This document shows positions 1 to 38,480 of a stretch of 38,480 bases of DNA, piece after piece. Made by a program: the position numbers and the translations under genes. This DNA comes from a virus: IMG/VR virus record IMGVR_UViG_3300042923_000626; one strand, 5' to 3'. The notes beneath the pieces were generated by a model. The model saw only the letters and a list, made by a program, of their open reading frames with translations. It searched no databases and was not told the origin of the DNA. How positions within the stretch are numbered: the stretch's first letter is position 1; the number at the start of each line of letters is the position of its first letter.

Positions 1-127
1 CCTTGGGCTTTCTCCAAAAATATCATTTTCATTAATATCCTGTCTTAAATGAATAATATCAGTGTAAGGATATGTAACAATAACTCCATTACGATTAGTA
101 AATCTTAGGAATAAATCGCCTGTAGAG
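1..127. repeat. Terminal direct repeat, identical to 38354..38480 (circular-contig overlap)
   Basis: Read directly: ccttgggctttctcc...cgcctgtagag occurs at both window ends and lies inside an uninterrupted ORF. Confidence 0.95.
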
Positions 128-525
128 TTGTATAAGGCTTCTACTCCTGCGCATGGAATATTGTACATTTCTAAAGGATAACCGTTGTCGTCTCTTACCA
201 ATAGAGCAAAAGCATTATTATTTAGTGCTAATTGAGTTGCCATCTTTTCTCTAAATACAGACCCAGTCATTAAAGGGTTAGGTTCTTCATACAGAAATCT
301 TATATAAGGCTCAGGATTAACTGAAAAGCCTTGTTGAGAATTGTTTCTAATATGTTGAGGTATAAGTTTACCTACAGCCTTAACTTTTGGTCTTATACAG
401 GCTCTAACAATATCAGATTTATATATATTGCCATTCCACATATAAAAGCCATTGCCCTTATCTTCAATCATTTCAAACCTTGCTTGAGTTACACTTCTAT
501 TAAATAAATTTTTAATGAATCCCAC
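1..525 (-). CDS. Portal protein, HK97 family, N-terminal 175 codons (continues from 38480 across the circular junction)
   Basis: Open minus-strand frame from a GTG at 525 preceded by GGGGGTGAAA. It is in frame with ORF 37682..38338 once the 127-bp overlap is removed. Translation starts VGFIKNLFNRS...NPLMTGSVFREKMATQLALNNNAF. Sits just downstream of terL. Confidence 0.85.
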   Translation of the reverse strand, partial: MGFIKNLFNRSVTQARFEMIEDKGNGFYMWNGNIYKSDIVRACIRPKVKAVGKLIPQHIRNNSQQGFSVNPEPYIRFLYEEPNPLMTGSVFREKMATQLALNNNAFALLVRDDNGYPLEMYNIPCAGVEALYNSTGDLFLRFTNRNGVIVTYPYTDIIHLRQDINENDIFGESPR

Positions 526-556
526 TTTAATTTCACCCCCTCTCTAGCCTGTAGAG

Positions 557-2401
557 TTAAATAACTGACATATAAGCTTCATACATTCGCTCTAGTTGTA
601 CATAAGCATCTAACAATGAAGCTAGTCCGTCAATACGCCTACGTGGATTGCTTGTCTTTATAGGCTGTATATTATCATTCTTATCAATGTCTATTGCAGT
701 ATTAGTTAAACACCATTTAAGAATTGGATTATTATTATAATTAATTATGTTATTCTCTAAATCAGCGCCTAGATTTTTCATAGGTCCGCTTAAAGTTTTC
801 TTTCCTTGAATAACTTGTTGCCATGTATCTTTGCCAAATGTATTATGCATTTCTTCTACCCAATAAGCAGCACTCCACGCATCATATCCACCCGAGTATA
901 TATAAATATCATAAGTATTTTGAATCTCTAAAAACCACTCGGTAACATACTTATAATGTACCTTGTTTCCTGGTGTAGTTCTTAATAATCCCATATCTCT
1001 CCATAAGTCATATGGGATTTTGTCTTCTTGTACTCTTTTTTCAAGTAGATCTTCAGGCAAAAAGTACATTTGCATAGCAAATATTTCTTCTTTTCCTGGA
1101 ACTTTGAATATAATAGTTGCACATGTTAAGTCAGTAGTACTAGACAAATCCGCACCACCTATACCATAACGTGGCTTTAGTTCCTCTAGAGTATAAATAG
1201 CAGTATTATTAGCCTGTTCAAAAGTCAACCATGCTTCAGCGCTTGTTTCTCTTATATTAAAATCTTTGCATAATAGATTTTTAACTAATAATGGATTAGC
1301 TTTAGCCTTATTTACTTTAGTAATTAATTGATCTATCTTTTTAATAGTTCCTAAACCTGGATTAGCTTTTATAAAGCAATCTTCATCCATCCACTCATTT
1401 CTATTATCTAATTCATACACTATAGGCAAGAATGACTCGTCTTTATATCCATTTTCATCATCATAGCCATTTATAACTCTTTCAGCTTCATCATATTTAA
1501 TGTCATATACACATTCTCTTACTGTTCCAGCTGTTGTTGTTATAAATATCAATGGTTCTTCTCTTGCTGTTGTACCATCTACAATAACGTCATATAGGTT
1601 CTTGTCCTGCCATGCATGTATTTCATCCAATAATGCACAATGTACATTTAAACCATCTAAACTATCACTATCACGCCCTAAAGGCCTAAAAAAAGAATCG
1701 TTAAAATCTGCTGTCAACTCCCCAACTAAAGTTTTAATTCTTTTCTTGAGAGTTTTCGACTTATTAACCATTCTCTTTGATTCTAACCATATTATTTTTG
1801 CTTGATCTTTCTTGGTAGCACATGCATAAATCTCGGCTCCTGGTTCACCATCCGCAACCTGCATATATAATCCTATAGCGGCAGCTAGTGTTGACTTACC
1901 GTTCTTTCTAGCAACTACAAGTAAAACTTCTTTATGCTTTCTGAGTCCAGTTATCTTATGAACTATACCAAATGTTGCAGCTACTAAAGCCTTTTGCCAT
2001 AACTCTAATATAAATGGCTTACCGCCCATCTTGCCTTTAGAGTGTTTACAATAGTTTTCTACAAATTCAATAGCATGATTTGCTTTATGATTATCATATT
2101 CCCACTCACTTGTAGGATCATTAATTATTCTTATTAGTTCTTTATATACTTTATAAACTTTATAACTTGTATTAATTGCACCAGTAGTAGCCTTTATCTC
2201 ATTAAGTTCTTTTGTAAGTTCTGCTAATTCATTTTCTTTAGCCTTAAGTTTAACTTCGTCAAGTTCTTTTTTGATGATGAATATTTCTTTCTTTAAATTT
2301 TCTACTTTTTGAAATAGTGGCTTATATTTTATTTTTTCCCAGTATTCTTCTACAGGATTATAAGCCAAGTCATAAATTATTTTTCTTACTGCTTTACTCA
2401 T
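557..2401 (-). CDS. terL: Terminase large subunit
   Basis: 614 aa. Terminase_1-like ATPase (GGKPFILELWQK, LLVVARKNGKST Walker A-like) plus a C-terminal nuclease region. Start overlaps the terS stop by 4 nt. Confidence 0.9.
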   Translation of the reverse strand: MSKAVRKIIYDLAYNPVEEYWEKIKYKPLFQKVENLKKEIFIIKKELDEVKLKAKENELAELTKELNEIKATTGAINTSYKVYKVYKELIRIINDPTSEWEYDNHKANHAIEFVENYCKHSKGKMGGKPFILELWQKALVAATFGIVHKITGLRKHKEVLLVVARKNGKSTLAAAIGLYMQVADGEPGAEIYACATKKDQAKIIWLESKRMVNKSKTLKKRIKTLVGELTADFNDSFFRPLGRDSDSLDGLNVHCALLDEIHAWQDKNLYDVIVDGTTAREEPLIFITTTAGTVRECVYDIKYDEAERVINGYDDENGYKDESFLPIVYELDNRNEWMDEDCFIKANPGLGTIKKIDQLITKVNKAKANPLLVKNLLCKDFNIRETSAEAWLTFEQANNTAIYTLEELKPRYGIGGADLSSTTDLTCATIIFKVPGKEEIFAMQMYFLPEDLLEKRVQEDKIPYDLWRDMGLLRTTPGNKVHYKYVTEWFLEIQNTYDIYIYSGGYDAWSAAYWVEEMHNTFGKDTWQQVIQGKKTLSGPMKNLGADLENNIINYNNNPILKWCLTNTAIDIDKNDNIQPIKTSNPRRRIDGLASLLDAYVQLERMYEAYMSVI

Positions 2402-2878: not shown

Positions 2879-3040
2879 TTATTTTATGGGGGGACTAGAC
2901 TCTTTCATATTTAATACTCTTTCAATATCGCATGAACATATTGGAACACCTCTTTTATTATTCTCAATCATCTTGGTTAAATATTGTATTTGAGATTCAT
3001 TTAATTTGTATCCATTGCATTTACATGACACCTTAATCAT
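2879..3040 (-). CDS. Hypothetical small protein (53 aa, Cys-containing)
   Basis: Hand-translated MIKVSCKCNGYKLNESQIQYLTKMIENNKRGVPICSCDIERVLNMKESSPPIK. Its ATG overlaps the HNH stop. Below the cutoff of the ORF track. Confidence 0.4.
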   Translation of the reverse strand: MIKVSCKCNGYKLNESQIQYLTKMIENNKRGVPICSCDIERVLNMKESSPPIK

Positions 3041-3329
3041 TCCTTTCAATCAATTCTCCATACTCATTAAACATTAATCCATCTCTTGTATTATCTTTCT
3101 TGGCATGTCTTTTATGATGGCAATCCTTACAAAGTAATATAAGATTACTTTCACCTAATGTAATATTAGTATCATTAATATTATCTGGACTTAAGAACTC
3201 TTTGTGATGTACTTCCTTACCTGGCTTACCACAATCAGCACATAGCCCATGATACTTATTAAAGATATATTCTCTTGTTTGTTTCCATGCTTTAGATTTA
3301 TAAAAACTTTTACTAAACTCTCTTGCCAT
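3033..3329 (-). CDS. HNH endonuclease (packaging-associated)
   Basis: 98 aa with CADCG...HHKEF...LLCKDCHHKRH, an HNH/zinc-finger motif. Located upstream of terS/terL as in HK97-like cos phages. Confidence 0.85.
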   Translation of the reverse strand: MAREFSKSFYKSKAWKQTREYIFNKYHGLCADCGKPGKEVHHKEFLSPDNINDTNITLGESNLILLCKDCHHKRHAKKDNTRDGLMFNEYGELIERND

Positions 3330-3861: not shown

Positions 3862-4317
3862 TTAAGGGAATATTGATTCAATAAGACTATTAATTATTTT
3901 GTTCCTTAATTGCTGGCAGTAATCTTTATTGAAGCTTAATTCCATACCTATCTCAATCCAACTCTTTTTATATTTGCTTAAGTATCTCATTTCAACCAGC
4001 TTGTACTCATTCTCTTTTAAATCCTTTAGAGCATTATATATTTTAGTTCTCAATGCCATCTTATCAGCCTTTAGAGACTTAAGTCTTGCTATCTCCTGTT
4101 CCATATAAATAGATCTGTGAATTACTTCATCTTCAACGTTGCTATGAAATGCATTAGTTGGACTTCCTTTATCCTCGTAACTAACCGCCTTTAGAGTAAT
4201 ATCATTCCTTAAGTGTTCTATGTCTATATCTATGTTATTAATAGCTGTATCAAGTTTCCTATAATCATATAATGTCTTTTCCATCTTTTTAAATTTATCT
4301 TCCAAGTTTATCACCAC
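3862..4317 (-). CDS. RinA/ArpU-family late transcriptional activator (sigma-70 region-4-like)
   Basis: 151 aa. N-terminal LYDYRKLDTAINN and C-terminal MRYLSKYKKSWIEIGMELSF helix-turn-helix. It is the last gene before the packaging module. Confidence 0.6.
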   Translation of the reverse strand: MVINLEDKFKKMEKTLYDYRKLDTAINNIDIDIEHLRNDITLKAVSYEDKGSPTNAFHSNVEDEVIHRSIYMEQEIARLKSLKADKMALRTKIYNALKDLKENEYKLVEMRYLSKYKKSWIEIGMELSFNKDYCQQLRNKIINSLIESIFP

Positions 4318-4914: not shown

Positions 4915-5325
4915 TCTCAGAACAAAAAATAACAAGTTTATAACAAGAAAATAACAAGTTTTTTAACTTTTTGTTATCCCTGTAACCGTTGATATAACTA
5001 ACCTGTAGGGTTCTCATAACAAAATAACAAGAATTTTTAAAATATACACCCTATCTTTATATATAAGGATGTATATACCTTTTCTCATCTATAGTATATA
5101 TATATTTATATTTTTTGTTATTTATATAATATATATATATAAGGATGGCTTAACCATGCGGTATGAGGCACATAACAAAACCGAAAAAATTCTTGTTATA
5201 TCCAGTTTTTAACATCACCTTCAAAGCTTTGGTACCACTGGCCTAGAGTACATAACAAAAAATATTTGATTTTTGTTATTTTTTTGTTATTTTCTTGTTA
5301 TGGCTCTATAGGTTGGACTACTTCA
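4915..5325. repeat. Iteron/AT-rich element, copy A (inverted homolog of 20845..21232); candidate replication origin
   Basis: 13 exact ATAACAA/TTGTTAT heptamers. Outer triplets are phased at 11 bp (4929, 4940, 4951 and 5273, 5284, 5295). ATAACAA-N14-TTGTTAT pairs start at 5172 and 5252. A central (TA)n tract runs about 5060-5140. Confidence 0.8.
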
Positions 5326-6372: not shown

Positions 6373-8970
6373 TTATTTAGCAACACTAAATATATTCCGT
6401 TCAGCCATGTTAACAGCTTCTTCCATTAGGTCGCATTCAACTATTTCACCAACTCCAAGTTCTATAAGTTTGTCTGTATTGAATTCATCATACCAAGGCT
6501 TGGAACCAGTATCTTTATCAGTAAACTGTTTTTCATTAACCTTTAAAAGATATCCACTTTTCTTAGCTTGCTTTCTGAAATCTTTAATCTTGACCATGTT
6601 AATATCAACAGATTGATAATCACGCTGATACTTAAATAATGTATCTACCAATATTTGTGATCTTATAAATGTCCTCTTTTTTTCTGTTCTTACAGCTTTA
6701 AATGCACTTACATAATTACTGTCCTGTAGAATATCATTAAACAATGTTATCATCTGTTCTATGGTACTGTCCGTATCGTCTCCGTTGCTCAAAACTTCAT
6801 CACGTATGTTTTGTTCAATAGCACTTTCATACTCTTCTACAGGCTGTAACCCCTGTTTAATTAGCACCTTATTAAGCAATTCAATTCCGCAACTTATGTT
6901 AATTGCTGTGTTAAGCGGTCTATCCTTTAGAGTGAATTTATTTCTCAAGCCGATTCTAAGCTGCTTATATTCCTCTATAGGCAAGTTTAAGACTTCTAAT
7001 ATAAGGCTTTTACCTAACTTATTTAACAATTCTCTATGATCTTCTAACCAAAATATTGAGTTGCTAGTTTCTTTGGTTCTTTCACCTTTTCCCATGTAAA
7101 CTATGCAGCTTCTAGTAATAATTGCTTTTTCATTACCTGGTATCATTTCTTCACCTGCAACTATCATTGGTCTTGTTAACTTTACATCTTTAACGCCAAA
7201 ACCTTTATCACCTCTAGATATTGCGTCTCTATCATATGCAGATCTAAAAATATTACTTAATTCATCTTTCTTATACTGAGTCATTTTACTAGGTTTGAAT
7301 TCTTCATATACTATTGGATAATTTCCGACTGCTAATTCTTCTTTAATAGAATGGATTGTACTTGACATTGTTTTTTTATCGCATTTAGGATAATTAAGAA
7401 GTGGCATTAATACTTTTTCTAATATAGTAGTTTTACCTGTTTGGCTTTCACCAAGTAAGAATAAATGATGTAATTGTGAATCTAATCCTATGCTTTGTGC
7501 TACTTCTAAAAAGCTTAATGCACTACCTATAAGGCAAACTGCTTGATTGTAATTTATGAATCTGAATAGATGTTGCATAAGCTCCTGAAGCTCATTTTTC
7601 TCTATAGGCTCTATATCTAATATGTCAATGTTGCTATTTTCAGCTACACAACTTCTATCCATGGCGCCCGGTGTCAATGTGCCTGTAGATGTAATGATTT
7701 TAAATTGTTCAGTACCTTCTATAGGCAATATTTTAGTTCCGACATTTATCTCACTATTATCTACTGCAAAATACTTATTAACCCAACCTTTGAGCTTTAC
7801 TAATTCACCTACATTTATACCAGTAAAGCTAAAGTCCATGCCCAGGAAGTTTCTAAAGGTCCTGAGATCATCAAAAATCTTACTTGGTCCAATCTTTTCA
7901 ACTATCTTTCCATCTATACAGCTTTTAATCTTAAGCTTTATATTTTGTGTTCCTTCATCAACTCGATTTATCTTACTTGCCTCTAGAATATTAAAATCAG
8001 TTAAACGCTCTTTTTTAAATGAATCTTCTTCGTCTTTACTTTTCTTTAAGTAATAAATTCCTTCATTGTCCTGCTGTAGTTCATATTTATTCTTAAGGTC
8101 CAGTGATCTATCAAATGATTTTATTAACTCTTCTTTTGTATGTCCAGCCTGCAACCAATCCGTAACGTCAGCACCTTTTCCCATAGATTTAATACCGGGT
8201 AAATTTACTACTTTAAACATTGAAGCGCATTTTATAAAATTCTTTTTAATGTTTTCCAAATATTCAATTCCTGTTTTATCATTGTCTGGAATCACTAATA
8301 TTTTCATGAATTCAGCCTGTATTTTAGCGTAATCCTTAAAACATTTTATTGAAGTTGCTACATAATCTTTTTTGCTTAAGGTGTTATTTATCGTATTAAC
8401 ATCTTTTTCGCCCTCTAGGAAGACAATAGTTTTATTCTGTGCTATTCCTTGCAATAGATTGTAATAATTGTATGGCACTTCATCATGTAGCCTTTTATTA
8501 AAGACTTGTCCATCCTGTAGAGAATAATAAGGTGTTTCTTTCTTGCCATCAGGCTTCAAAAACTTAACTTTTGCATATATAGGATTGTTATTTTCATCTA
8601 CAAATACAAACACTCCTAAAGGCTTGTATCCTTGCTTATTTCCGCTCTTAACTTGCTTAGATACATAATCTTCTATTGCACTTTTAAACTCTTCTAAAGG
8701 CGTTCTAGTGACTTCCATGCCTAGATATTCTCTAGCTTCTTTATGGCTTAGATTTTTATATTCCATAATAAAGTCCACACAATCTCCGTATTTACCACTA
8801 TCACTAAAATCTTTGAATTGCCATTTGTTCTTATTACTATTGAAAAATACACTAAAAGAAGGTGTCTTTTCATTGGTAAATGGTGAGCATATTTTATTGT
8901 CCTTATTAAATCTCTGTCCTGTCTCAGCCTCTATAACTGCCTTTAGGTCTATATCTTGTATTTCTTTCAA
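6373..8970 (-). CDS. Bifunctional DNA primase/helicase (zinc-finger-like N-terminus, Toprim, P-loop NTPase)
   Basis: 865 aa. N-terminal CSPFTNEKTPSF resembles the DnaG CHC2 finger. Toprim-like FLEGEKDV...PDNDKTG. Walker A LLGESQTGKTT in the C-terminal half. Confidence 0.8.
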   Translation of the reverse strand: MKEIQDIDLKAVIEAETGQRFNKDNKICSPFTNEKTPSFSVFFNSNKNKWQFKDFSDSGKYGDCVDFIMEYKNLSHKEAREYLGMEVTRTPLEEFKSAIEDYVSKQVKSGNKQGYKPLGVFVFVDENNNPIYAKVKFLKPDGKKETPYYSLQDGQVFNKRLHDEVPYNYYNLLQGIAQNKTIVFLEGEKDVNTINNTLSKKDYVATSIKCFKDYAKIQAEFMKILVIPDNDKTGIEYLENIKKNFIKCASMFKVVNLPGIKSMGKGADVTDWLQAGHTKEELIKSFDRSLDLKNKYELQQDNEGIYYLKKSKDEEDSFKKERLTDFNILEASKINRVDEGTQNIKLKIKSCIDGKIVEKIGPSKIFDDLRTFRNFLGMDFSFTGINVGELVKLKGWVNKYFAVDNSEINVGTKILPIEGTEQFKIITSTGTLTPGAMDRSCVAENSNIDILDIEPIEKNELQELMQHLFRFINYNQAVCLIGSALSFLEVAQSIGLDSQLHHLFLLGESQTGKTTILEKVLMPLLNYPKCDKKTMSSTIHSIKEELAVGNYPIVYEEFKPSKMTQYKKDELSNIFRSAYDRDAISRGDKGFGVKDVKLTRPMIVAGEEMIPGNEKAIITRSCIVYMGKGERTKETSNSIFWLEDHRELLNKLGKSLILEVLNLPIEEYKQLRIGLRNKFTLKDRPLNTAINISCGIELLNKVLIKQGLQPVEEYESAIEQNIRDEVLSNGDDTDSTIEQMITLFNDILQDSNYVSAFKAVRTEKKRTFIRSQILVDTLFKYQRDYQSVDINMVKIKDFRKQAKKSGYLLKVNEKQFTDKDTGSKPWYDEFNTDKLIELGVGEIVECDLMEEAVNMAERNIFSVAK

Positions 8971-9430: not shown

Positions 9431-9907
9431 TCACTTCCTATAGGCATATTTACAGTGTCCAACTTCTGTATATCTATCAAAAGGTGTTATTGCCTGTTCA
9501 TCAAAATGATTGTATAAATCGCAATCCTTAAAGCACTTCTCGCAACCTTGACAATTAATATCCATAGTGATTTCAACTAAACTAAAATACTCCTTATTTT
9601 CTTCATAAGCTGCTCTTTCATCTGCTGATTTTCTCTTTTTAAGTATCTTGTACTTTTCTTCATCAACTGCGCTAATCATCATGTATTTAGCCTTTCTCTC
9701 TAATTTATCAAGTTCTTTAGTACCAATTCGATTAAAGATATTGTCAATTCCCTTCATAATGAATGAGACACCTCTTTTAAAATCTCCTTGACCTTTAGAG
9801 TCTACAAATTTATGAAATCTTTTTGAAATACTGAATACTGCTGTAATAAGTGTTATCATGTCTCTTTCTTCTTCACTATTTAGATAATCTTTCATATTAC
9901 CAAACAA
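9431..9907 (-). CDS. Hypothetical Cys-rich protein
   Basis: 158 aa with a C-terminal CQGCEKCFKDCD...HC cluster. Start is ambiguous: TTG at 9907 or ATG at 9895. Confidence 0.55.
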   Translation of the reverse strand: MFGNMKDYLNSEEERDMITLITAVFSISKRFHKFVDSKGQGDFKRGVSFIMKGIDNIFNRIGTKELDKLERKAKYMMISAVDEEKYKILKKRKSADERAAYEENKEYFSLVEITMDINCQGCEKCFKDCDLYNHFDEQAITPFDRYTEVGHCKYAYRK

Positions 9908-10212: not shown

Positions 10213-10642
10213 CCTCGCTCTCTTCTATATACCATTTGCCTTCTTGAATTATTGTTTTAATATCTATTTGGTTGTTAGTTAAAGTAAACAGAACCCAATC
10301 CAAATCATTAAAATCTGATATTTTTTTATTACTATATACAGTAAGGTCAGTATCTATTAATTCATGTTCAACTTTGCACTTCTTACCACTTTTAACTACT
10401 TCCATAAAGCTTACAGGCTGTTGAATTGGAATGAATACTCCATTAATTAAATAATCATATGGTTTCATAAAAGTACCATCAGGATGGCTTTTCCAGTCTA
10501 TATGCTTAGTGTTTCTATCACTTGCTAAACTTCTATAAATCACCATTGTATTATTAGGTATCTTTTTGCCATCAAAAATAACTTCGAATTCAGTACCTAA
10601 AGGCATTTTCATAGCCTCGATTATATTTAACTTTTTACTCAT
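10196..10642 (-). CDS. Hypothetical protein (148 aa, start trimmed)
   Basis: The track ORF 10196..10723 overlaps the upstream gene. An internal ATG at 10642 (MSKKLNII...) follows GGAG with good spacing. Confidence 0.55.
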   Translation of the reverse strand: MSKKLNIIEAMKMPLGTEFEVIFDGKKIPNNTMVIYRSLASDRNTKHIDWKSHPDGTFMKPYDYLINGVFIPIQQPVSFMEVVKSGKKCKVEHELIDTDLTVYSNKKISDFNDLDWVLFTLTNNQIDIKTIIQEGKWYIEESEVDSNE

Positions 10643-10877
10643 TAATATCAACTCCATTATCATTTTTAAATTGAATATTGTTTGTTGCTTCTTCCCAACA
10701 ATCTCTACACCTAATCGAATCATTTCCTAAACATTTGCTTGTCCTTTTAAAACTCTTAAGCCTATAAGAATGAGGACAATCATGGTCTTGATTTAATATT
10801 CCTAAGTTTATTTGACATGATTGAGTTAGAAACTCTTCTCTTGTCATGGTCTTAGCAACTTCTTTTATATCAATCAT
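10635..10877 (-). CDS. Small Cys-rich protein, paralogous to the N-terminus of 14147..14713
   Basis: 80 aa. MTREEFL...DCP...C...RCRDCWEEATNNIQFKNDN aligns with MTKEEFF...GCP...C...TCEECWLKAIEKNNIKFKDDE. Confidence 0.6.
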   Translation of the reverse strand: MIDIKEVAKTMTREEFLTQSCQINLGILNQDHDCPHSYRLKSFKRTSKCLGNDSIRCRDCWEEATNNIQFKNDNGVDINE

Positions 10878-11589
10878 TTATATCGCTCTCACTTTCCTCT
10901 ATTAAATCCCACATAAATTCATCACAATAACCCTCATGAACTAGCTTATTTCTTACTCCATACTTTAAAGTATTAAATATCTCGCTACCCATGCATTCCT
11001 TACCTATAGGGCGAATAATAGTCCTAAACTCTCTTTCTAAGGATTTTACTCTAGCATATAAGGATTCTTTTTTGTATTGACTTCTATAGTTACCTCTTCT
11101 TATATTTTCATCAAAGTTTTTATCCTCTACAAATATAAAAAACTCAATACCGTTTTTATTTATACTGGTCAATTCTTGCTTAAATCTGTTATAATCAGAC
11201 TTTAGAACCTTAGCTAAATAATCTTTCCCAAGTAAATCAATTATCTCCTTATTTATCTCGTTGATATTAGTCTTTTTATCCTTAAAGTTCATTGCAATTT
11301 CATCAATACAAAATTTTCTTTCAATAACAATATCATTCGTGAAATAAATGTCCCTTTGTTGCCCTTTAAAGCTACCTTGTGGCAACATAACCGAATAATC
11401 CCCATAGTCAAGTTTTACGTTTTTATAATTAATTCCTTTAAGTTTAAAAAAATCAATTATATGTTTATTGGTTTGTTCTCTGGTATCGCAAAGTATTGTT
11501 AAATTCTTTTGTATACTATCGATTTCTCTATCTACAAATTGATATCTCAAATTTTCACCATCCTTTAGAGCAATTGAGCAAATAACCAA
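10870..11589 (-). CDS. ERCC4-type (XPF/Mus81-like) structure-specific nuclease
   Basis: 239 aa with DTRE...GDYSV...VIERKFCIDEI, matching the GDxn-ERKxxxD signature. Start is uncertain: TTG at 11589 has poor RBS spacing, and TTG at 11550 is an alternative. Confidence 0.6.
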   Translation of the reverse strand: MVICSIALKDGENLRYQFVDREIDSIQKNLTILCDTREQTNKHIIDFFKLKGINYKNVKLDYGDYSVMLPQGSFKGQQRDIYFTNDIVIERKFCIDEIAMNFKDKKTNINEINKEIIDLLGKDYLAKVLKSDYNRFKQELTSINKNGIEFFIFVEDKNFDENIRRGNYRSQYKKESLYARVKSLEREFRTIIRPIGKECMGSEIFNTLKYGVRNKLVHEGYCDEFMWDLIEESESDIND

Positions 11590-11619
11590 ATTGTTAAATG
11601 CTCAAAACTCCTAATTAAA

Positions 11620-11814
11620 TTATTCAAAATCACTTAAATCTCTAGTTTTCTCCATTATTCCTCCACAATGTTTACAAACCATTCTTTTGGCATAATAGAT
11701 ATTTCCTTTTTTAGATATTATCTTAGTACTTTTATACTCTCCATCACTTCTTGGCCATGGCTCTTTTGCGGTTCTTGGAGGGCATTTTGGGTTATAACAA
11801 TAATAAGTAACCAT
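11620..11814 (-). CDS. Zinc-ribbon small protein
   Basis: 64 aa with CYNPKCP...CKHCGG. Confidence 0.55.
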   Translation of the reverse strand: MVTYYCYNPKCPPRTAKEPWPRSDGEYKSTKIISKKGNIYYAKRMVCKHCGGIMEKTRDLSDFE

Positions 11815-11830
11815 TTATACCTCCTATAGG

Positions 11831-12196
11831 CTATATTTCTGCAAATGCTAATGATACATTATCAAAAATTACTTTCTTAGTTTTATCTGTAACTAAGTTT
11901 TGATTTTCACATGAAGCACCTGCTATTACTTGCTCACTTTGGCAATAACATTGTTTATTTAAAAGGCATCTTTGATTTAAACAACTCTTATCTTTTATTA
12001 ATTCACTATCATCTTTAGTTAGTTCTACTGGATCAGCAATTCCAAAATAATCTGCAAGTTTCTTCAATCTATCATTTGATGTATTATAGTGCTTATTTTC
12101 AACATTACGAATTGTAAGTTCTCCAACACCAGTTTCCTTTTCTAATTGCCTATAGGTTAGACCTCTTTCAAGTCTAAGCTTTCTTAATAAAATCAT
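11831..12196 (-). CDS. XRE-family HTH protein with Cys-rich C-terminus
   Basis: 121 aa with an HTH_3-like LRLERGLTYRQLEKETGVGELTIRNVE. Confidence 0.65.
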   Translation of the reverse strand: MILLRKLRLERGLTYRQLEKETGVGELTIRNVENKHYNTSNDRLKKLADYFGIADPVELTKDDSELIKDKSCLNQRCLLNKQCYCQSEQVIAGASCENQNLVTDKTKKVIFDNVSLAFAEI

Positions 12197-20525: not shown

Positions 20526-20531
20526 TTCAAA

Positions 20532-27200: not shown

Positions 27201-27503
27201 ACCTGTAGACTTATCTATAAATTGTAACTCTACAGGCGTATTACCTGCGGTAGTTGTTAATTGTTCATCAGCTTGAATATTAACTACATTGCCATCAATA
27301 TCTATACCTATATGTTGTTGTATAAGTGGAACATTATCAGCTTTCATTGCTCTAAGCCTTACATCATAATTAGTTAAATCTGCCTGTAGACTATTATCAA
27401 AAATACTTAAGATTAAATTTAAATTATCAAACTGCTTACACGTTGCATATATATTCAAATTTTGTTTAAGGTCTAAACTTGCTGTTAAATCTTGTATTGC
27501 CAT
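24237..27503 (-). CDS. Receptor-binding protein/tail fibre: BppU-N-like anchor, 14-aa repeats, clan GH-A glycosidase-like domain, head repeats, phi29 gp12-type C-terminal chaperone domain
   Basis: 1088 aa. N-terminal DLKQNLNIYATCKQFDNLNL. WEVWNEPN and ITEFGYP catalytic-Glu motifs. C-terminal GADYAEFFEW...EDRCGYFV...ILGVVS...DDFGR resembles Peptidase_G2. Confidence 0.75.
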   Translation of the reverse strand: MAIQDLTASLDLKQNLNIYATCKQFDNLNLILSIFDNSLQADLTNYDVRLRAMKADNVPLIQQHIGIDIDGNVVNIQADEQLTTTAGNTPVELQFIDKSTGEKKATFNLVLVVVASAIAIEASISKATYTLLEELEKKLDQLSDFFEHIGEAIEANTNLETTISNSETAKNNLDGSISAGNTLKVNLDNTFSIGNTLKTNLENDISTGNTLKDDLEGTISTGDSLLNSLETFEQEHADVTDISNKLADINAGLSNIIHNNKSLDVGVSLGGRNPSVIDNIGVANLKTYGITSFRLEVLWSKVETVSGAYDFSYYDSTIMELINNGIRPIITLGRDNSIYSTGSHIVTDTARAAFINYVKATVNKYKNYNVSWEVWNEPNLEYFWNDQANASNYYYLLIKDTYNAIKAINSNHKVYGCCLAESYRPENGYQYRVSDFFINFCVLGGLNYMDALSIHPYSVQEPEMLGIIYNTYKGLIGTFNNKDMEIAITEFGYPIPSNWDNLSMPPLPSLSDTQRGQYFLRSFMANLINGISTQSIHELYSPQSNNTDSEYWFSLFNADYSPTTSATMIKNFLSSLGNGSELLFHEQPRSADYFVYFKKADNSVICVYWTRNDEHTITNRGINFDLTQTPQIVAIDSSLIDLDSVIKEYNKKTINDNGDVLYSYNNALVKTPDGGGVFGSTKYNYAGINSTAFGNMNLAYSSNVYGIKTYTNGSNIITLGSVSGLAVGNNVIIKHDWNAIVYAEITAIDTTYLTVTLNKPVYTGAKYLLYRPSNFNPNAAFAEGANNLSTGYASCASGVNTFAGEEGAHSEGSGSKATNLWSHAQNKSTQATERASTAMGDSTTANNYACMVMGKYNKPLLTGGASNNQIGDAFVIGNGTSSSALSNGFRVNYGGGVYGTQAYNATGADYAEFFEWSDENINKEDRCGYFVTTDGDKIKIATTGDYILGVVSANPCIIGNSDEDWLGKYAHDDFGRFIYEDVEEEIEQINEETREVTLVKTGSIIKNGRLKLSANYDQTKEYIQRANRPEWDTVGMLGVLAVRDDGSCQVNGYCSVNSSGIAITSEKGMDTYRVISRVNDNIIKIIFK
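26814..26999. repeat. Tandem 42-bp (14-aa) repeats inside the receptor-binding protein gene
   Basis: Four to five units of the form LKxNLxxxISxGNT: AKNNLDGSISAGNT, LKVNLDNTFSIGNT, LKTNLENDISTGNT, LKDDLEGTISTGDS. Confidence 0.7.
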
Positions 27504-29234: not shown

Positions 29235-29944
29235 TAATAACACCTCCATCTAGGAGTAATTTCTAATTTAGTAACATTGCCTGTCCAGTTTATATTAATA
29301 GGGCCTATAGGCAATATTGGATAATCCCCTACCATATCTCTTCCTTTATTAGTGTTGTCTTTATAACACTCTTTTATTTCACTATCTACAACTACATAAC
29401 TACTAACATTATTAACAGTGAAACTCTTACCGCCTATAGAAACAGAAACATTACCACTTCCATATATCTTTACTAAAGGCTTAGATTCATAACTACCAAA
29501 GTTATTTAATACAGCACTGCTAATAAGCTCTATAGGCCTTAATCCACTAGTCATATATTTTAGTCCTGTACATGTGAAAGTAACGCTAAAATGCCTTAAT
29601 ATCCTACTTGTAGTGGTTGTATTATCAATCTGTATTTGTTTTACTTTATAGGCTGTGAATTCATCTAAGCTATAAGTTAAATAATTGCCTATAGAATTAA
29701 GTAGCCAATTATCTATTCTAGACTTTTTCATTAGATATTCTTCTCTTTCAGCAAAATATACAAAGTCTATTTTAAAAGTTATACCTTTAAATCCTTTGTT
29801 TTTTGTAAGTGGTTCCCCCCCATCAATTGGAACTACATCATAATCAATGTTAGAAGGAGGAATATCAGGTGTCTTTTCAATTATTAAGTCTAGATCTAAA
29901 CTTTTTTGATTATTATAAAATACATATGAAAGCACCCTTACCAT
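29234..29944 (-). CDS. Distal tail protein (Dit, siphovirus tail component)
   Basis: 236 aa. Synteny places it between the tape measure and Tal. Overlaps the tape measure stop. Confidence 0.65.
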   Translation of the reverse strand: MVRVLSYVFYNNQKSLDLDLIIEKTPDIPPSNIDYDVVPIDGGEPLTKNKGFKGITFKIDFVYFAEREEYLMKKSRIDNWLLNSIGNYLTYSLDEFTAYKVKQIQIDNTTTTSRILRHFSVTFTCTGLKYMTSGLRPIELISSAVLNNFGSYESKPLVKIYGSGNVSVSIGGKSFTVNNVSSYVVVDSEIKECYKDNTNKGRDMVGDYPILPIGPININWTGNVTKLEITPRWRCY

Positions 29945-32937
29945 CCCCTTCTATTATTATTAAATGCAAGTTGATTGCTTACTGTTGGACTTACTAATTT
30001 ACCAACTTCCCTACTATCCATTAATATTTTCATATTTGTTATTGCATCAGTTAATCTATCCATTTTTGCTAAGATTGCATCTAAATTACTGCCTGTAGAA
30101 CCAACATTATTTCCACCTATAGGCGAATAATTAACACCCATATCAAAATTTCCATTATTAATATTAGGTATTGCTGCATTTGCTAGTGCATTTGCTTGTC
30201 TAGATATACTGCCTATAGTATCGCCAATACCTAACTCAAACCCTTGACCTGCAAAATTACCGATTTTTCTAAGAACTCTAGAAGGTGAATGAATATCTAA
30301 ACCGTCTTTATCAGTAAAACCACTTACGAAACTACTTGTTAATCCATGTACCCAAGATTTCATGCCCTCCCATTTATCTAAGATTCCTTGTCTTAAACCA
30401 TCAACTATGTTTCCACCTATTTCAGCCATTCTACTTGGCAAATTTGCAAATGTATCAACTATTCCATTAAATACATTTGTCATTCCTGTTGTGGCTTCTG
30501 AAAGCATATTAGTGCCCCATGTAGTCATATTAGTCACACAATTACTTAACCATGTTTCAATACCACCGGGTAGCTGAGTAAACCAATTTATAATTGCATT
30601 ATAGGTATTTGTAGCAGCAGTAGTTGCCTCTGTTAACATATTGCTACCCCAAGCCTGCATATTAGTAATTACATTAGTTAACCAAGTCATAATATTACCA
30701 GGAAGCGCACTAAACCATTGGCCTATAGAATTTATCCATATTGGAACATTGGTAGTTAAATAACTATAGGTATCTGTTCCCCACTTAACAACACTTCCTA
30801 TAGCTTCACCTAATCCATAAGCAATGGCATTAGGTAAACTAGCAAACCATGTTCCCATAGATTCCAACCAATTAGGAACACTTTCAGTAAAGAATGTTAC
30901 AACTCCATTCCAACCATCTGTAAAAGCTGTTGTTATAGTTGTCCATAAGTCACTAAACATTTGTGGAACTGTGCTAGTAAAAAATTCTCCTAAACTAGAA
31001 AAAGCATTTGGAATTGTTTCAGTAAAAAATGCAACTATTCCATTCCATACTTGGCTGGCAGTATCGGAAATAGTGTTCCATGCTCCAATTACAGCATCCC
31101 TAAATGCCTCATTTGTGTTCCATAGATATACTATAGCAGCCACTACACCAGCTATTACAGCTATTATTATGCCTATAGGGTTCGCATCCATTGCGGCATT
31201 CAAAAGCCATTGAGCCAATGTTAATCCTTCTGTGGCTAATTGTGCATCTTTGAATGCTGTTACTAATCCTTCCACTAAAGATGCTACTTTAAAAACTTCC
31301 ATAGCTGTACCTATCCCAATTATTCCAGCAGCAATTATACTTGAATTATCCATTATCCAACCTAAACCGCTTAATAAATCTGGTAGTATATTTGTTACTG
31401 TATCAGCTATAGCTTTTATTAAATCTCCCAGCCCTTGCGATAAACTCTCTATTGCACCTTGTAAATCAGAATTTGAAAAAGTTTCGCTTAATTGCTTTGC
31501 TGCATCATTAAGACTTGGCATTAATTCTTGAGACACTGGAAGTAATACACTAGTTTTAATTTCTCTTCCTAATCCTTGCATAGCCTCTACAGGCGTATTA
31601 TATTTAACCTGATTAATCTGTTCCATAGAATTTTTAGTTTGGTCAAAAGCACCTTGTACACTTCCTAAGCTAGTTACAACCTGAGGTCCTAAGTCTTCCC
31701 ACTGTGTTCCAAAAAGATCTACTCCGGCAGTACTTTGCGCTACAGGATCATCCATATCCTTTAGACCTTGAATAACTTGATAAAAGGCTTGCTTTGCACT
31801 ATCTCCACCAGCACCAAACTTTTGTGCCATTTCATCAGCGTTAAGGCCTAATGCTTGAAATCCTTGTTGTGTAGTTGTAGAACCATCAATAACTCTTATA
31901 GATAGTTCTTTTACTGCATCACCAACCTTATCTAGATTGAACGCTCCTGCATCAGCGCCACTTTTAAATATGTTAAACATATCTGTAGCACTTAAGCCTA
32001 ATTTATCAAATTGCACACCATATTCATTTATTGAGTCAAATAGTTCATCACTAAAGTTTAATCCTTGTTGTTGACCTTGAGCTAACAAATTAAATGCTTC
32101 TTCAGATGTAAGTCCGAATTGTTTCATTAATGCCTGTACACTTCTCATACTTTCAGGGACTTCTACTCCAAATGTATCTCTAAAGGCTATTGCGTTTTGC
32201 GTAACTCCTTGTAAATCTTCACCAGTGCCCTGCATATATTGCCTTACTTCAGAAAAACTTTCTGCTACATCTTCAACACTAGAACCAAAGTTATTATTAT
32301 AAACAGCTTCAATTTGTTCGTTAAACTGTGCCATTTCATCTGATGTTGCACCAGTTTGAGCCTGTAGACCGTTTAAAGACTTTTGCCAATCTCCACCAAA
32401 GGTTACAAGTTCGCCAAAACCTTCTTTAGCCTTGTCCCAAATATCTCCACCAATAGCAAGTCCAATTCCTCTTTTGATGTATTCACCCATGTTGTCAAAT
32501 ACGCCTTTAGACTTCTCAACTTCTTGCTCTAAGTCTTTTACAGGCTTTGCTAAATCACCACTTGTAGGTGGATTCATAGCGTCCTTATACGAGGTTTTGA
32601 ACTTATTTAATGAAGCTTCAGTAAACTCTATTTCTCTTTGAAAAGCCCTATATTGTTGCTCACCTATTTCGCCTTTAGAGAATTGTGCATCTACTTGACT
32701 TTGTGCATCTTTTAAAGCTTTTAACTTTTGACTAGTATTTTCTATTTGCTTAGACAATAATTCTTGTTTTTGCGCAAGCGCTGCTGTATTACCCGGATCA
32801 AATTTTAAAAGCCTATTAACATCTGTTAATTCTTTTTGAATAGATATACTTTCCTGTGTAACACTGCTTAAAGCCTTTTTAAGACCTGTAGTTTCTCCAT
32901 CAAGTTCAATTGTTATACCCTTAATTCTATCTGCCAT
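29938..32937 (-). CDS. Tape measure protein
   Basis: 999 aa with N-terminal coiled coil, a central TM-like segment and periodic W/F repeats. GGAGG RBS. Confidence 0.9.
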   Translation of the reverse strand: MADRIKGITIELDGETTGLKKALSSVTQESISIQKELTDVNRLLKFDPGNTAALAQKQELLSKQIENTSQKLKALKDAQSQVDAQFSKGEIGEQQYRAFQREIEFTEASLNKFKTSYKDAMNPPTSGDLAKPVKDLEQEVEKSKGVFDNMGEYIKRGIGLAIGGDIWDKAKEGFGELVTFGGDWQKSLNGLQAQTGATSDEMAQFNEQIEAVYNNNFGSSVEDVAESFSEVRQYMQGTGEDLQGVTQNAIAFRDTFGVEVPESMRSVQALMKQFGLTSEEAFNLLAQGQQQGLNFSDELFDSINEYGVQFDKLGLSATDMFNIFKSGADAGAFNLDKVGDAVKELSIRVIDGSTTTQQGFQALGLNADEMAQKFGAGGDSAKQAFYQVIQGLKDMDDPVAQSTAGVDLFGTQWEDLGPQVVTSLGSVQGAFDQTKNSMEQINQVKYNTPVEAMQGLGREIKTSVLLPVSQELMPSLNDAAKQLSETFSNSDLQGAIESLSQGLGDLIKAIADTVTNILPDLLSGLGWIMDNSSIIAAGIIGIGTAMEVFKVASLVEGLVTAFKDAQLATEGLTLAQWLLNAAMDANPIGIIIAVIAGVVAAIVYLWNTNEAFRDAVIGAWNTISDTASQVWNGIVAFFTETIPNAFSSLGEFFTSTVPQMFSDLWTTITTAFTDGWNGVVTFFTESVPNWLESMGTWFASLPNAIAYGLGEAIGSVVKWGTDTYSYLTTNVPIWINSIGQWFSALPGNIMTWLTNVITNMQAWGSNMLTEATTAATNTYNAIINWFTQLPGGIETWLSNCVTNMTTWGTNMLSEATTGMTNVFNGIVDTFANLPSRMAEIGGNIVDGLRQGILDKWEGMKSWVHGLTSSFVSGFTDKDGLDIHSPSRVLRKIGNFAGQGFELGIGDTIGSISRQANALANAAIPNINNGNFDMGVNYSPIGGNNVGSTGSNLDAILAKMDRLTDAITNMKILMDSREVGKLVSPTVSNQLAFNNNRRGW

Positions 32938-34400: not shown

Positions 34401-34401
34401 T

Positions 34402-35760: not shown

Positions 35761-36978
35761 CTAAACAGACTTTTTAGTAATAGTAACAAGTGAATTTTTA
35801 TCAATAACTTTACCATCAACAAGCATAATTGCTTTTGTCACTAGATCATCAGTTTCATTATCTTCATAATTCTTAATAGTCATATTAAGATTAGTATTTA
35901 ATACATAATCCTTCATGCTAAATAATGCTATAACCTTTATATCTGCTGTTGGAGCATCAACATAACTATCCATATAGTCATTTAATACTACTGTTCTGCC
36001 TAGTAATATTCTTTCAGGCTTTCCGTTAATACCATAGTTAGTTCTTGCTACAGGTTGACCATTTGAATCCTTAATTGATGAATAAGCCATAAATGTCTTC
36101 TTAGTCATTAACCAAACTGCATCACTATCATAAGCTAAAGGCAATGCTGCTTCAGCGCTCTCTAAATGATCTAATTTAGGTTTATCTGCTTTAGCAACAT
36201 CAATATTTTGTCCAGTAACTACAGTTTCAGTTAAGATTCCTTTAGGTTGGTTAGTTCCAGAACCACTAATTATAGATTGCTCTATAGCTTTAGTCATAGC
36301 TTCAACAACATTGTTAATTAATGTTTGTTCAAATATTGGAAGTGCCATTGTGTCAACTTCTAAAGAGTTAGAAACTGCACATCTTAATTTGAAGTAGCCA
36401 AAATCAATATAATCTACAGTCTTCTTTTGCTTATCGCTTGTAGCACCTTCAGATACCCATGTAGCAACTGGCTTCAAGCTTGATACTGGTACTTTAACTC
36501 CACCTTTAATGTTTGTTCTAGTAATTAAAGGAAGGATCATTCCTGTTGATTCCATTTTTTCAACTATTTTCGATAAAACAGTTTCAGGAATAAGAACTCC
36601 TATATCACCAGTTTTAGTGCTTGCATTTGCATTTTTAAATTGTGATGGCATTGGTTCTTTATTTACAACATAATTCATAAATGCCTTTCTATAATCTGTG
36701 CTGTTAGTAAAGTTTTCATCCTCTGTATTGCCTATAGAGTCAATTACTTTCATTGGTTCATTAGTTTTAACGCCACCTGCATAAACATTAGTTATCTTTG
36801 TGTTATCCTTTAGGGCATTAAGATTAGCTGCTGCTTTTACCTCATTTTCGAATTGTTCATCAAGCTTATTGATCTCTTCCATTTTTGCATTAGCTTCTTC
36901 AATTTTCCCTTCATTGATTAAACTTTCAGCCATTGCCATTAATTCATTTCTTTGTGCTAAATATTTTTCTTTATTCAT
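35761..36978 (-). CDS. Major capsid protein, HK97 family
   Basis: 405 aa from the ATG at 36978 (GGAGG 9 nt upstream). N-terminal coiled-coil delta-like region, then the capsid fold region. Confidence 0.9.
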   Translation of the reverse strand: MNKEKYLAQRNELMAMAESLINEGKIEEANAKMEEINKLDEQFENEVKAAANLNALKDNTKITNVYAGGVKTNEPMKVIDSIGNTEDENFTNSTDYRKAFMNYVVNKEPMPSQFKNANASTKTGDIGVLIPETVLSKIVEKMESTGMILPLITRTNIKGGVKVPVSSLKPVATWVSEGATSDKQKKTVDYIDFGYFKLRCAVSNSLEVDTMALPIFEQTLINNVVEAMTKAIEQSIISGSGTNQPKGILTETVVTGQNIDVAKADKPKLDHLESAEAALPLAYDSDAVWLMTKKTFMAYSSIKDSNGQPVARTNYGINGKPERILLGRTVVLNDYMDSYVDAPTADIKVIALFSMKDYVLNTNLNMTIKNYEDNETDDLVTKAIMLVDGKVIDKNSLVTITKKSV

Positions 36979-36979
36979 T

Positions 36980-37678
36980 TTACATTCCTCCAAGTTTTAA
37001 TAAATTTAATTTTGCTTTTGCTTTTTGAGCATTAAAAAAATCCATATCTTTATTAGATAATGGATTACTTTGCATTTTTGAATTTCTCATTTTTTCTATT
37101 ACCTCTAAAGGCAATAAATTTGATTGTATACTTGCCACTAGATTAACTTGTCCATTATTAAACATTATTTCATCAATGAACTTATTTTCTAGTGCCTGCT
37201 GAGGTGTTAACCAAGTTTCTTGATTCATCATATTTAATAAATCAGCTTCGCTCATTCCTGTTTTAAGTCTATAGGCATTTGCAATAGTAGTGTTGGCATT
37301 TTTTAATACATCTGAAGCATGTTGCATGTCTCTATAATCGCCACTACTTCGCGTAGATACATTATGTATCATCATTTGTCCAGTAGGTGACATTAAAATA
37401 TTATTACCTGCCATAGCAATTACACTTGCCGCACTTGCTGCCAATCCTACAATTTTGGTAGTTACATTTCCGCTATAGGATTTTAGAGTTGTATAAATTT
37501 CACTTCCTGCAAATACATCACCACCACCAGAATTAATTTCAACCTCTAGATCATCACCATTAGCTTCAAAAATAGCTTCATTAACTGATTTAGGACTTGT
37601 TGCATCCATACCAAACCAATCATAAATCCATTGGTCACCACTTTGAATAATTGCTCCTTTTACACTTACTTTCTTCAT
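36980..37678 (-). CDS. ClpP-like head maturation protease (S14)
   Basis: 232 aa with INSGGGDVFAG...GLAASAASVIAMAG. Confidence 0.85.
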   Translation of the reverse strand: MKKVSVKGAIIQSGDQWIYDWFGMDATSPKSVNEAIFEANGDDLEVEINSGGGDVFAGSEIYTTLKSYSGNVTTKIVGLAASAASVIAMAGNNILMSPTGQMMIHNVSTRSSGDYRDMQHASDVLKNANTTIANAYRLKTGMSEADLLNMMNQETWLTPQQALENKFIDEIMFNNGQVNLVASIQSNLLPLEVIEKMRNSKMQSNPLSNKDMDFFNAQKAKAKLNLLKLGGM

Positions 37679-37681
37679 TCA

Positions 37682-38480
37682 TCATTCACCCCCTTTCAGC
37701 TTATCAAGGATTTTGTTATATAGCTTTTCTTCAATTTCATTTACTACAGCAGTATCTAACCGTCTTATAACTTTATCTCCACCTTCTACAGGCGGTAAAT
37801 TAAGAACTTCTCTCCATTCATTAGGCGTTAATGCGCCTCTATCTACCATTTGTAATAAGTTCAATTTAGTAGCCATACTAGCATATTGAAGATTATTAGC
37901 AGCATAAATAATTTGATTTCCAAAACCTCTTTCACGCCTATTAAATAGCTTTCTCGTATCTTCAGCACTCCATTGTAACGCTATAGGCTCAATCTCACTC
38001 TCATAATATGCGTTCCATTCATCTTCGCTGTATTTGCTTTGTACTATCTTTTCGTTAGTATTAAAAAAGCTGTATATTCTCTGTGTGGTTCTGTCAATAA
38101 CTGACGCATTGGGAACATAATCTTTAGGTTCTATTTGCTGTGCATCTACTTTATTATCAATTCCAGCTGCTCCACCTGTATTTTCAATATTCAAGAATGT
38201 TTCTGTGAATAAATCTGTTTGTTTTTTTATGTCCTCAGGTCTAACATTTCCAAGATATTTTAATAGCCATCTAATTACACCACTATTTTTAATAGCCTTA
38301 ACTATTCCTTGATCTGTTGTCGTAACAATATTCATCAAAGGTAATAATGATTCCCTTGGGCTTTCTCCAAAAATATCATTTTCATTAATATCCTGTCTTA
38401 AATGAATAATATCAGTGTAAGGATATGTAACAATAACTCCATTACGATTAGTAAATCTTAGGAATAAATCGCCTGTAGAG
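37682..38480 (-). CDS. Portal protein, HK97 family, C-terminal part (continues at 128..525 of the circle)
   Basis: The frame stays open upstream of the track ORF to the window edge. Removing the overlap gives a joined length of 398 aa. Confidence 0.85.
   Translation of the reverse strand, partial: STGDLFLRFTNRNGVIVTYPYTDIIHLRQDINENDIFGESPRESLLPLMNIVTTTDQGIVKAIKNSGVIRWLLKYLGNVRPEDIKKQTDLFTETFLNIENTGGAAGIDNKVDAQQIEPKDYVPNASVIDRTTQRIYSFFNTNEKIVQSKYSEDEWNAYYESEIEPIALQWSAEDTRKLFNRRERGFGNQIIYAANNLQYASMATKLNLLQMVDRGALTPNEWREVLNLPPVEGGDKVIRRLDTAVVNEIEEKLYNKILDKLKGGE
38354..38480. repeat. Terminal direct repeat, identical to 1..127
   Basis: Read directly from the sequence. Confidence 0.95.

Follow-up and report, generated by a model that had tools for sequence, protein, structure and literature searches.

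Short words dispersed through a whole genome as marks of 'self' are known in cells, where they include Chi, the uptake sequences and HIP1, and phages are known to deplete words to evade restriction. In temperate phages, the only well-studied genome-wide private sites are, to our knowledge, the stoperators. Those of the Cluster A mycobacteriophages L5 and Bxb1 are copies of an asymmetric word which is private to the phage, dispersed over its genome and read by a phage protein. Here, we describe a word that is likewise asymmetric, phage-private and dispersed, the heptamer CCTNTAG, in a 38,480-nt stretch of viral DNA (IMG/VR record IMGVR_UViG_3300042923_000626), which was analysed at its full length and is called the window below. 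CCTNTAG is a signal at the level of DNA. It stands in about 10-fold excess, is specific and under selection, is private to the phage with respect to its likely host, is evenly spaced (at least 18 bp apart) and has variants in related phages.

The whole window represents one complete, circularly permuted genome of a temperate siphophage. Its first and last 127 bp form an exact direct repeat (1–127 = 38354–38480), which stems from the overlapping ends of a circular assembly; the portal gene spans the junction of the two ends, and removal of the overlap leaves a unique genome length of 38,353 bp.

Over-representation of CCTNTAG in the window

With both strands pooled, CCTNTAG gave 159 strand-specific matches at 146 distinct places (4.1/kb), with a mean spacing of 239 bp. 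The site at 119 is the same as that at 38472 and was counted twice through the terminal overlap, so that the true count is 158 in 38,353 bp. Base composition predicts 11.7 sites (13.6-fold enrichment), dinucleotide-preserving shuffles (n = 100) gave a mean of 15.1 with a standard deviation of 4.2 and a maximum of 27 (10.5-fold), and trinucleotide composition predicts 17.5 (9-fold, z = 33.8). When synonymous codons were shuffled within each gene (n = 300), 57.7 ± 5.5 sites were obtained (2.8-fold, z = 18.4), and the extended form GCCTNTAGR was observed 72 times against 16.0 ± 2.2 in such shuffles (z = 25.8). The maximal-order Markov z for the 7-mers was lower, 4.5–6, because the sub-words are themselves enriched; CTATAG occurs 108 times against 50.8 expected (z = 10.4).

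An initial annotation made from the sequence alone had put the enrichment at 10–20-fold, which holds for the compositional nulls, while under the strictest null, the codon shuffle, the value is about 3–4.5-fold. Most of its hand counts were reproduced, namely 26 CCTATAG, 33 CTATAGG, 18 CTACAGG, 29 CCTTTAG, 11 CCTCTAG and no CTAGAGG, as well as the rarity of the opposite polarity (CCTACAG 3, CTGTAGG 3) and the excess of G before the motif (82 of 158 sites). Small corrections are needed for CCTGTAG (24, not 23), for CTAAAGG (18, not 15) and for the extended sites, of which TTGCCTATAG accounts for 4 and CTATAGGCAA for 8, 12 in total and not about 15. There are indeed 13 palindromes CCTATAGG, and 12 of the starts given for them are right; the one placed at 17800 really lies at 17790.

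The best form of the word is GCCTNTAGR and its optimum GCCTRTAGA. Only positions −1 (G in 52% of sites), +7 (A in 57%, G in 25%) and +8 of the flanks are informative, and the central position takes any base, with a slight preference for G and A once composition is corrected for. Single-base neighbours of CCTNTAG are not enriched (0.2–2.9 times expectation), nor are the spacing variants CCTTAG, CCTNNTAG and CCTNNNTAG (0.5–0.9 times expectation). The palindrome CCTATAGG consists of two overlapping sites and makes up 13 of the 146 places. We found no paper in the literature on CCTATAGG as a genomic word or on iterated words private to phages.

The word occupies each reading frame in which it gives no in-frame stop, and it does so in both orientations (59 sense and 81 antisense sites within genes). 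Genes (about 35.6 kb) hold 140 of the 159 strand-specific matches (88%), and the non-coding DNA (about 2.9 kb, or 7.6%) holds 19, so the intergenic DNA is the denser of the two. The peptide contexts are diverse and include P-[ILV]-x, [SPTA]-[ITKR]-G, L-[KQE]-x and x-[YFC]-[RS], among others. Motif-poor homologues often have the same amino acids with other codons: PVE is encoded by CCTGTAGAA in the window and by CCAGTTGAA in the homologues, and LKD by CTAAAGGAT and CTAAAAGAT, respectively. In L069, one of the compared loci (which are numbered with the prefix L), the word is missing at 6 of 7 sites that lie in conserved tripeptides. The word entered coding DNA mainly via synonymous codon choice. 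The frames, the two orientations, the denser intergenic DNA and the codon-shuffle z of 18–26 bear out the original argument that protein coding cannot explain the word, and the intergenic sites and the A-Y-R-K-stop context (9431–9443) listed in its support are as described. The idea that the word forces amino-acid changes failed, since sites lie in fully conserved tripeptides at the background rate (a fraction of about 0.32).

Within the tail fibre, a tandem repeat of 14 residues (…ISTGD/ISTGN/FSIGN…) holds three sites at distances of exactly 42 bp (26839, 26881 and 26923). Being within this repeat, these sites are not independent of each other.

Conservation, spacing and distribution among phages

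Conservation was measured against a relative of about 80% identity over 21 kb of alignment. At third codon positions, the six specified bases of the word were 89.6% identical (n = 192) compared with 69.5% elsewhere (n = 6353); the corresponding values were 91.7% and 84.8% at first positions and 93.8% and 89.4% at second positions. The N position showed background-like conservation. Sites were kept as sites in 84 of 111 aligned cases, whereas 32.7 were expected from position-specific divergence, and each of the two genomes had 27 private sites, a turnover at roughly constant density.

The spacing is more even than chance (coefficient of variation 0.81 versus 0.99 for random placement, P = 0.004). 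No two places lie 2–17 bp apart, against 9.9 expected, and this deficit was also found in relatives. Outside a motif-free cassette, the largest gap is 901 bp. There are 90 plus-strand and 69 minus-strand sites in the window, and no orientation switch, periodicity or site pairing was detected along it. The sites were also considered as mosaic breakpoints or recombination hot spots, which was rejected, since the distances from 128 homology ends to the nearest site were those of random positions.

To our comparison belong 50 loci around related integrases from Clostridium, Veillonella and other genomes (prophage or chromosome), which contained 0.2–1.0 sites/kb, and 80 viral contigs with related capsid genes, which contained 0–1.8 sites/kb with the exception of L070 (4.9/kb). 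Even the closest capsid relatives (77% identity) had only 0.6–1.2 sites/kb. In an unbiased scan of all XXX-N(0–4)-XXX words over 117 loci, the median top z was 7.5, while the motif-rich phages reached z = 19–34, always with CCTNTAG. Both the codon shuffles and the lack of enrichment in over 100 other low-GC loci rule out a generic AT-rich or codon effect, which settles a caveat of the initial annotation. As a separate observation, L097–L112 (IMG/VR contigs with a GC content of about 42% and capsids 53–55% identical to that of the window) have no CCTNTAG in up to 21 kb where 8–10 would be expected from composition, which is a depletion and thus the reverse of what the window shows.

The host was searched for starting from the integrase, the repressor, the attB-side helicase fragment and the amidase. 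The amidase of the window is closest to those of Clostridium beijerinckii (80%), phage HM T, C. saccharoperbutylacetonicum and C. butyricum, and proteins of the motif-rich contig L139 carry the NCBI name C. beijerinckii. Judged from these homologues, the most likely host is the C. beijerinckii group. Chromosome segments of C. beijerinckii and its other prophages (CP053893.1, CP070895.1, JABFUL/JABFUM contigs and a JGI contig) had 0.34–0.59 sites/kb. In clearly chromosomal DNA of C. beijerinckii type, a small sample from strains other than the lysogen, there were 6 sites in 23.3 kb (0.26/kb), close to the approximately 0.29/kb predicted from composition, and the density in the phage is about 16 times that in this host-type DNA. 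Other Clostridium chromosomes (L142, L147–149) were likewise not enriched. A host-wide signature was rejected, as neither the C. beijerinckii chromosome pieces nor its other prophages are enriched.

The enrichment is common to at least 15 related phage contigs with 1.8–5.2 sites/kb, and the same word recurs in contigs from NCBI, ENA, JGI and Logan. The motif-rich contigs include the prophage IMGVR_UViG_2593339124_000002 (L070/L134/L173), with approximately 80–89% DNA identity to the window, as well as L136, L137, L139, L141, L155, L156, L169, L170, L252 and L256; a weaker enrichment was found in L135 and L259–L264. Early replication/recombination genes are common to these contigs, and other modules not necessarily so. 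L136 carries a different terminase/portal/capsid module and still has about 2.2 sites/kb, L141 is equally rich with a different lysis module, and L170 has few proteins in common with the window, at 30–66% identity. There are also mosaics: L157 is rich in its first 4 kb only and L169 in its first 13 kb only, while L182 and L189 have 3-kb rich islands in a poor background.

The sole poor stretch in the window is the motif-free cassette, whose 4.0 kb hold not a single site (Poisson P of about 7e-8). The equivalent cassette of the relative L173 is nearly site-free too, yet unrelated in sequence, and no DNA similar to the cassette of the window was found among the compared loci or GenBank phages. 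We read this cassette as an exchangeable module from a motif-poor gene pool. The density of the word therefore records the residence time of a segment in the lineage.

The word itself differs among related phages. GCCTNTAGR is the word of the window group, and in L170 it is replaced by the palindrome CCTATAGG (22 copies in 22.6 kb; N = A in 77% and +7 = G in 59%, with no G at −1). L135 and L169 have GCCWNTAG, with A or T at the third position, and L274 (IMGVR_UViG_3300045988_174257) has 42 copies of CCTNTAC against 7 of CCTNTAG in 16.5 kb. If a reader protein changed its specificity, one-base shifts of this kind in an otherwise identical word would be the outcome. Two further over-represented words were noted along the way. 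L274 also contains TGTCCC/GGGACA (23 versus 2.5 expected, z = 13), and 10 kb of L165 (IMGVR_UViG_3300033174_000156) contain 16 GGTNACC against 1.5 expected (z = 11.7), a word of the same 3 + N + 3 architecture as CCTNTAG, but palindromic.

Genome organization and candidate readers

The coordinates of the main features and of the palindromes are given in Table 1. The GC content of the window is 31%, and nearly all genes lie on the minus strand. An identical sequence was found in three other metagenome assemblies; near-identical DNA was not found in GenBank phages or PLSDB plasmids, and no tRNA or Rfam elements were detected in the window.

Table 1. Features of the window and positions of the palindrome CCTATAGG.
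Feature	Position	Strand	Remarks
Large terminase	557–2401		
HNH endonuclease	3033–3329		
ArpU-like regulator	3862–4317		
Primase-helicase	6373–8970	−	DnaG-type zinc finger
DUF5651 protein	9431–9907	−	158 amino acids
CCTATAGG	9437–9444		Y-R codons, end of DUF5651 gene
ERCC4-type nuclease	10870–11589	−	
CCTATAGG	11003–11010		P-I-G codons, ERCC4 nuclease gene
Small zinc-ribbon open reading frame	11620–11814	−	
CCTATAGG	11823–11830		Intergenic
XRE-type helix-turn-helix (HTH) protein	11831–12196	−	Cys-rich tail
CCTATAGG	12149–12156		T-Y-R codons, HTH gene
AAA_24 recombinase-like protein	13363–14007		
CCTATAGG	14265–14272		P-I-G codons
CCTATAGG	17044–17051		Intergenic
CCTATAGG	17790–17797		P-I-G codons
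CCTATAGG	17991–17998		P-I-G codons
LexA-like repressor	18796–19431	+	
Integrase	19443–20525	+	
CCTATAGG	19459–19466		T-Y-R codons, integrase gene (plus-strand gene)
CCTATAGG	21451–21458		Intergenic, attP-side non-coding region
Amidase	21711–22478		Holin also recognized
Motif-free cassette	22846–26838		Holin gene start, acyltransferase gene and C-terminal ~890 residues of tail fibre
Acyltransferase	23097–24152		
Tail fibre	24237–27503		1088 amino acids
CCTATAGG	29304–29311		P-I-G codons
Tape measure	29938–32937		
CCTATAGG	30116–30123		P-I-G codons, tape-measure gene
CCTATAGG	31172–31179		P-I-G codons, tape-measure gene
Capsid	35761–36993		ClpP-type protease also recognized

Two non-coding elements of about 380 bp (4921–5302 and 20838–21213) are mutually inverted and 72% identical. 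Each has about 15 TTGTTAT/ATAACAA iterons around a (TA)n run, and both are kept in the relatives L134 and L136. They have no Rfam match and resemble either an origin of replication or a region where a regulator binds at multiple sites. Directly downstream of the integrase gene, at 20530–20750, TTTTTGACG occurs four times in two pairs; these copies are likely the arm-type integrase-binding sites of attP. Relatives are integrated in a UvrD/PcrA-like helicase gene, at its 3′ end (L139, 12371–12799; L149, 1–1191 and 10001–10456; L147/L148, 10001–10384), and the insertion leaves C-terminal helicase fragments of 127–150 amino acids with the database name '3′-5′ exonuclease'. This gene end is a hot spot of repeated integration, and the island it holds differs from one Clostridium species to the next. 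In addition, two early proteins (10635–10877 and 14147–14713) have in common a Cys-rich segment ending in C-x2-CW-x2-A…I-x-FK-x-D, an unannotated repeated domain. Of the 61 called genes, 16 end in TAG, 35 in TAA and 9 in TGA. The share of TAG seems high for a genome with this GC content, and some of the TAG stops belong to CCTNTAG sites (e.g., 21275).

The DUF5651 protein is a weak candidate for the reader of the word. It has a C-terminal CxxCxxCxxxC...C cluster with conserved Cys residues and was found in every motif-rich segment, and of all window genes it comes closest to a discriminating gene. No paper on DUF5651 was found in the literature. The HTH/ERCC4 pair, which includes the zinc-ribbon open reading frame (10870–12196, minus strand), is likewise a weak candidate for the reader or an effector. 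The HTH–ERCC4 neighbourhood recurs in most motif-rich relatives (it is the same in L139, L141 and L252), being neither universal nor exclusive to them. Two other proteins were considered. The primase-helicase is unlikely, as motif-rich and motif-poor phages are intermingled in the trees of all three of its parts (zinc-binding, catalytic and helicase), and a CI-type repressor is disfavoured because the window and L134 have the same word but different genes of this type.

Explanations of the word and comparison with known systems

Based on the above results, we tentatively suggest that the CCTNTAG copies are selected recognition sites on duplex DNA, private to one temperate Clostridium siphophage lineage, for a lineage-specific factor. 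This follows from the privacy of the word, its sharpness with a free centre, the conservation at silent sites, the minimum distance, the coverage of both strands and the one-base variants. A lineage-specific protein would read the word and would most plausibly be encoded in the early replication/recombination module common to the motif-rich phages. With a site every ~240 bp, the word could be a tag spread over the genome that says 'this is phage DNA', its copies being loading or protective points that would favour the phage genome in replication, recombination or nuclease attack; gene-by-gene regulation is not the proposed role. DNA newly brought from motif-poor phages, such as the tail-fibre/acyltransferase cassette, would have yet to acquire sites. 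A more novel reading, possible though rather doubtful, is a self 'barcode', in which a phage-encoded protein would read the heptamer, kept at about one copy per 240 bp throughout the genome, and phage DNA would be told from host or competitor DNA only by its sequence, with no modified bases involved. The barcode might allow replication or recombination proteins to be loaded selectively or might protect from a nuclease, and co-evolution of reader and word might give rise to the sister barcodes CCTNTAG, CCTATAGG, GCCWNTAG and CCTNTAC.

Several points weigh against recognition by such a factor. In the presence/absence matrices, no window gene occurs in all motif-rich contigs and in no motif-poor one. 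More distant homologues of the DUF5651 protein are present in motif-poor phages too; this protein has no PHROG, NCBIfam or PADLOC match, its PDB profile search was empty, and a single-sequence AlphaFold model was unusable (predicted local distance difference test score of 41). The assignment of the host is based on named homologues (C. beijerinckii) and on about 23 kb of chromosome from other strains only. The mosaics with a rich early and a poor late region (L157, L169) imply that full coverage is not essential. Conservation at synonymous sites would also be produced by a drive through biased conversion.

Such a non-adaptive drive, in which a context-specific nuclease or repair activity of the phage resolves mismatches in recombination heteroduplexes toward the word, is an unlikely alternative; an ERCC4-type or HNH nuclease acting with a Sak4-like phage recombinase is one possibility. 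Biased gene conversion of this kind would agree with an enrichment that tracks residence in the gene pool and not gene function (all modules are rich, imported cassettes are not, and mosaics exist), with sites that seem conserved yet turn over (27 private each way), with a recombination module of the phages' own (AAA_24, an SSB-like protein and ERCC4) and with variant words, which could mirror an altered nuclease specificity. It does not predict the even spacing or the deficit at 7–17 bp, no one-step neighbour is depleted as it is with Dcm/Vsr, family scans recognised no Vsr-like or mismatch-specific enzyme, and the homology breakpoints are not associated with sites. Somewhat less probable again is a Chi-like or decoy function, in which the host AddAB or another nuclease or defence system reads the word and spares the ends or replication tails of phage DNA, the sites having accumulated in place of an inhibitor gene. 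Chi-rich phage genomes exist (P1), and lambdoid phages without inhibitors of their own have more Chi. Besides this precedent, protection needs distributed and evenly spaced sites, variant words could suit different host specificities, and the word occurs in host DNA about once per 4 kb, a frequency within the range of E. coli Chi. The word is nevertheless not over-represented in the host chromosomal sample or in the other prophages of the same species, the counts of 90 and 69 on the two strands show no orientation bias or switch, though Chi is orientation-dependent, and a free central N is atypical for Chi. Among the causes that the initial annotation had left open, a host-wide signal (Chi-like or a host factor) is thus disfavoured, because the host chromosome and the other prophages are unenriched and there is no orientation skew, and so is a repair bias of the very-short-patch (VSP) type, because no one-step neighbour is depleted. 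The best option left from that list is a binding or modification site of a phage factor, which is strengthened by the conservation at synonymous positions, the even spacing and the lineage-specific word variants.

As for modification, it seems improbable that the word is a target for methylation or a bulkier adduct, with more sites giving a better shield against restriction or CRISPR. Methyltransferases of Type IIG, Type III and the BREX type typically recognise asymmetric words of 6–7 bp with single-base shifts of specificity, and CCTNTAG resembles their sites in its shape and one-base shifts; furthermore, L139 has an N6_N4 methyltransferase gene adjoining the primase gene. Against this, the L139 enzyme is not common to the other motif-rich phages, family-by-family scanning, which covered early genes of the window, turned up no methyltransferase or other modification enzyme, and such sites are normally neutral or avoided and not 10-fold enriched. 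Priming sites, which the primase-helicase would need for Okazaki starts on both strands at short intervals, are a still more remote explanation. The initiation trinucleotide of Firmicute DnaG is CTA or TTA. The complement of the word contains the CTA known for these enzymes, and both strands are covered at regular spacing without orientation bias and with no gap above 901 bp outside the cassette; in addition, the primase family is present in nearly all motif-rich contigs that extend to this part of the early module. Its zinc-binding, catalytic and helicase phylogenies nonetheless do not separate motif-rich from motif-poor phages: the zinc fingers of L136 and L156 are only 40% identical to that of the window with the same word, the closer L158/L159 are without the word, and the L170 primase groups with motif-poor phages. 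Known primases read 3–5 bases, and the palindromic variant of L170 is more in keeping with a dimer that binds duplex DNA. Finally, an artefact of composition, codon usage or assembly, or a dispersed repeat family, may be regarded as refuted. The modest maximal-order Markov z of the 7-mers is what could be said for it, to be set against z = 18–26 versus codon shuffles and z = 34 versus trinucleotides, flanks uninformative beyond −1, +7 and +8 (hence no repeat element), the identical sequence in independent assemblies, the recurrence of the word in four sources of contigs and the unenriched low-GC loci.

A private 7-mer that is enriched about 10-fold in a phage lineage and present in nearly all of its genes would add a new layer to the organization of phage genomes, one which constrains codon choice at about 140 places per genome. 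The word distinguishes long-term resident from recently imported segments and is thus a built-in tracer of mosaicism. It also offers a simple handle, by oligonucleotide pull-down or by recoding, toward a new sequence-specific DNA reader, and it could help to classify clostridial phage contigs in metagenomes and to link them to hosts.

The word fits none of Chi, USS/DUS, HIP1, stoperators, restriction-modification sites, VSP repair or primase sites, each of which fails at least one tested defining feature. Chi sites, which modulate the RecBCD/AddAB nucleases, are also short, asymmetric and distributed words, and some phages are Chi-rich, but in its host Chi shows over-representation and a strand skew, and it is orientation-dependent; neither feature was found here. 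The uptake sequences USS/DUS are words of 9–12 bp at about 1/kb in both orientations, read by a protein as a 'self' tag; they are host-genome-wide and tied to natural competence, whereas our host sample is unenriched. In the case of Dcm/Vsr, repair activity can likewise raise a short word in all frames, yet there the deamination neighbour is depleted, while all transition neighbours of CCTNTAG occur at 0.95–1.9 times expectation; no Vsr or C5-methyltransferase gene was found among the early genes scanned in the window. Sites of restriction-modification or BREX systems are avoided or at most neutral in phages, unlike the 10–14-fold enriched word described here.

HIP1 (GCGATCGC) of cyanobacteria is similar in many respects, being a short word at 1–3/kb in all frames and in non-coding DNA, with above-neutral conservation, lineage variants and an unknown function. 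It is, however, a property of the host chromosome that cyanophages inherit, while in our case the host is unenriched and one phage lineage only carries the word. In addition, HIP1 is a palindromic octamer, and CCTNTAG is asymmetric with a free centre and palindromic at 13 of 146 places, though L170 favours CCTATAGG. Stoperators, for their part, are 13–14 bp long, number approximately 24–36 per genome, lie mostly in short intergenic gaps and point in one direction relative to transcription. In contrast, CCTNTAG stands at 146 places in both orientations, with 88% of its matches in genes.

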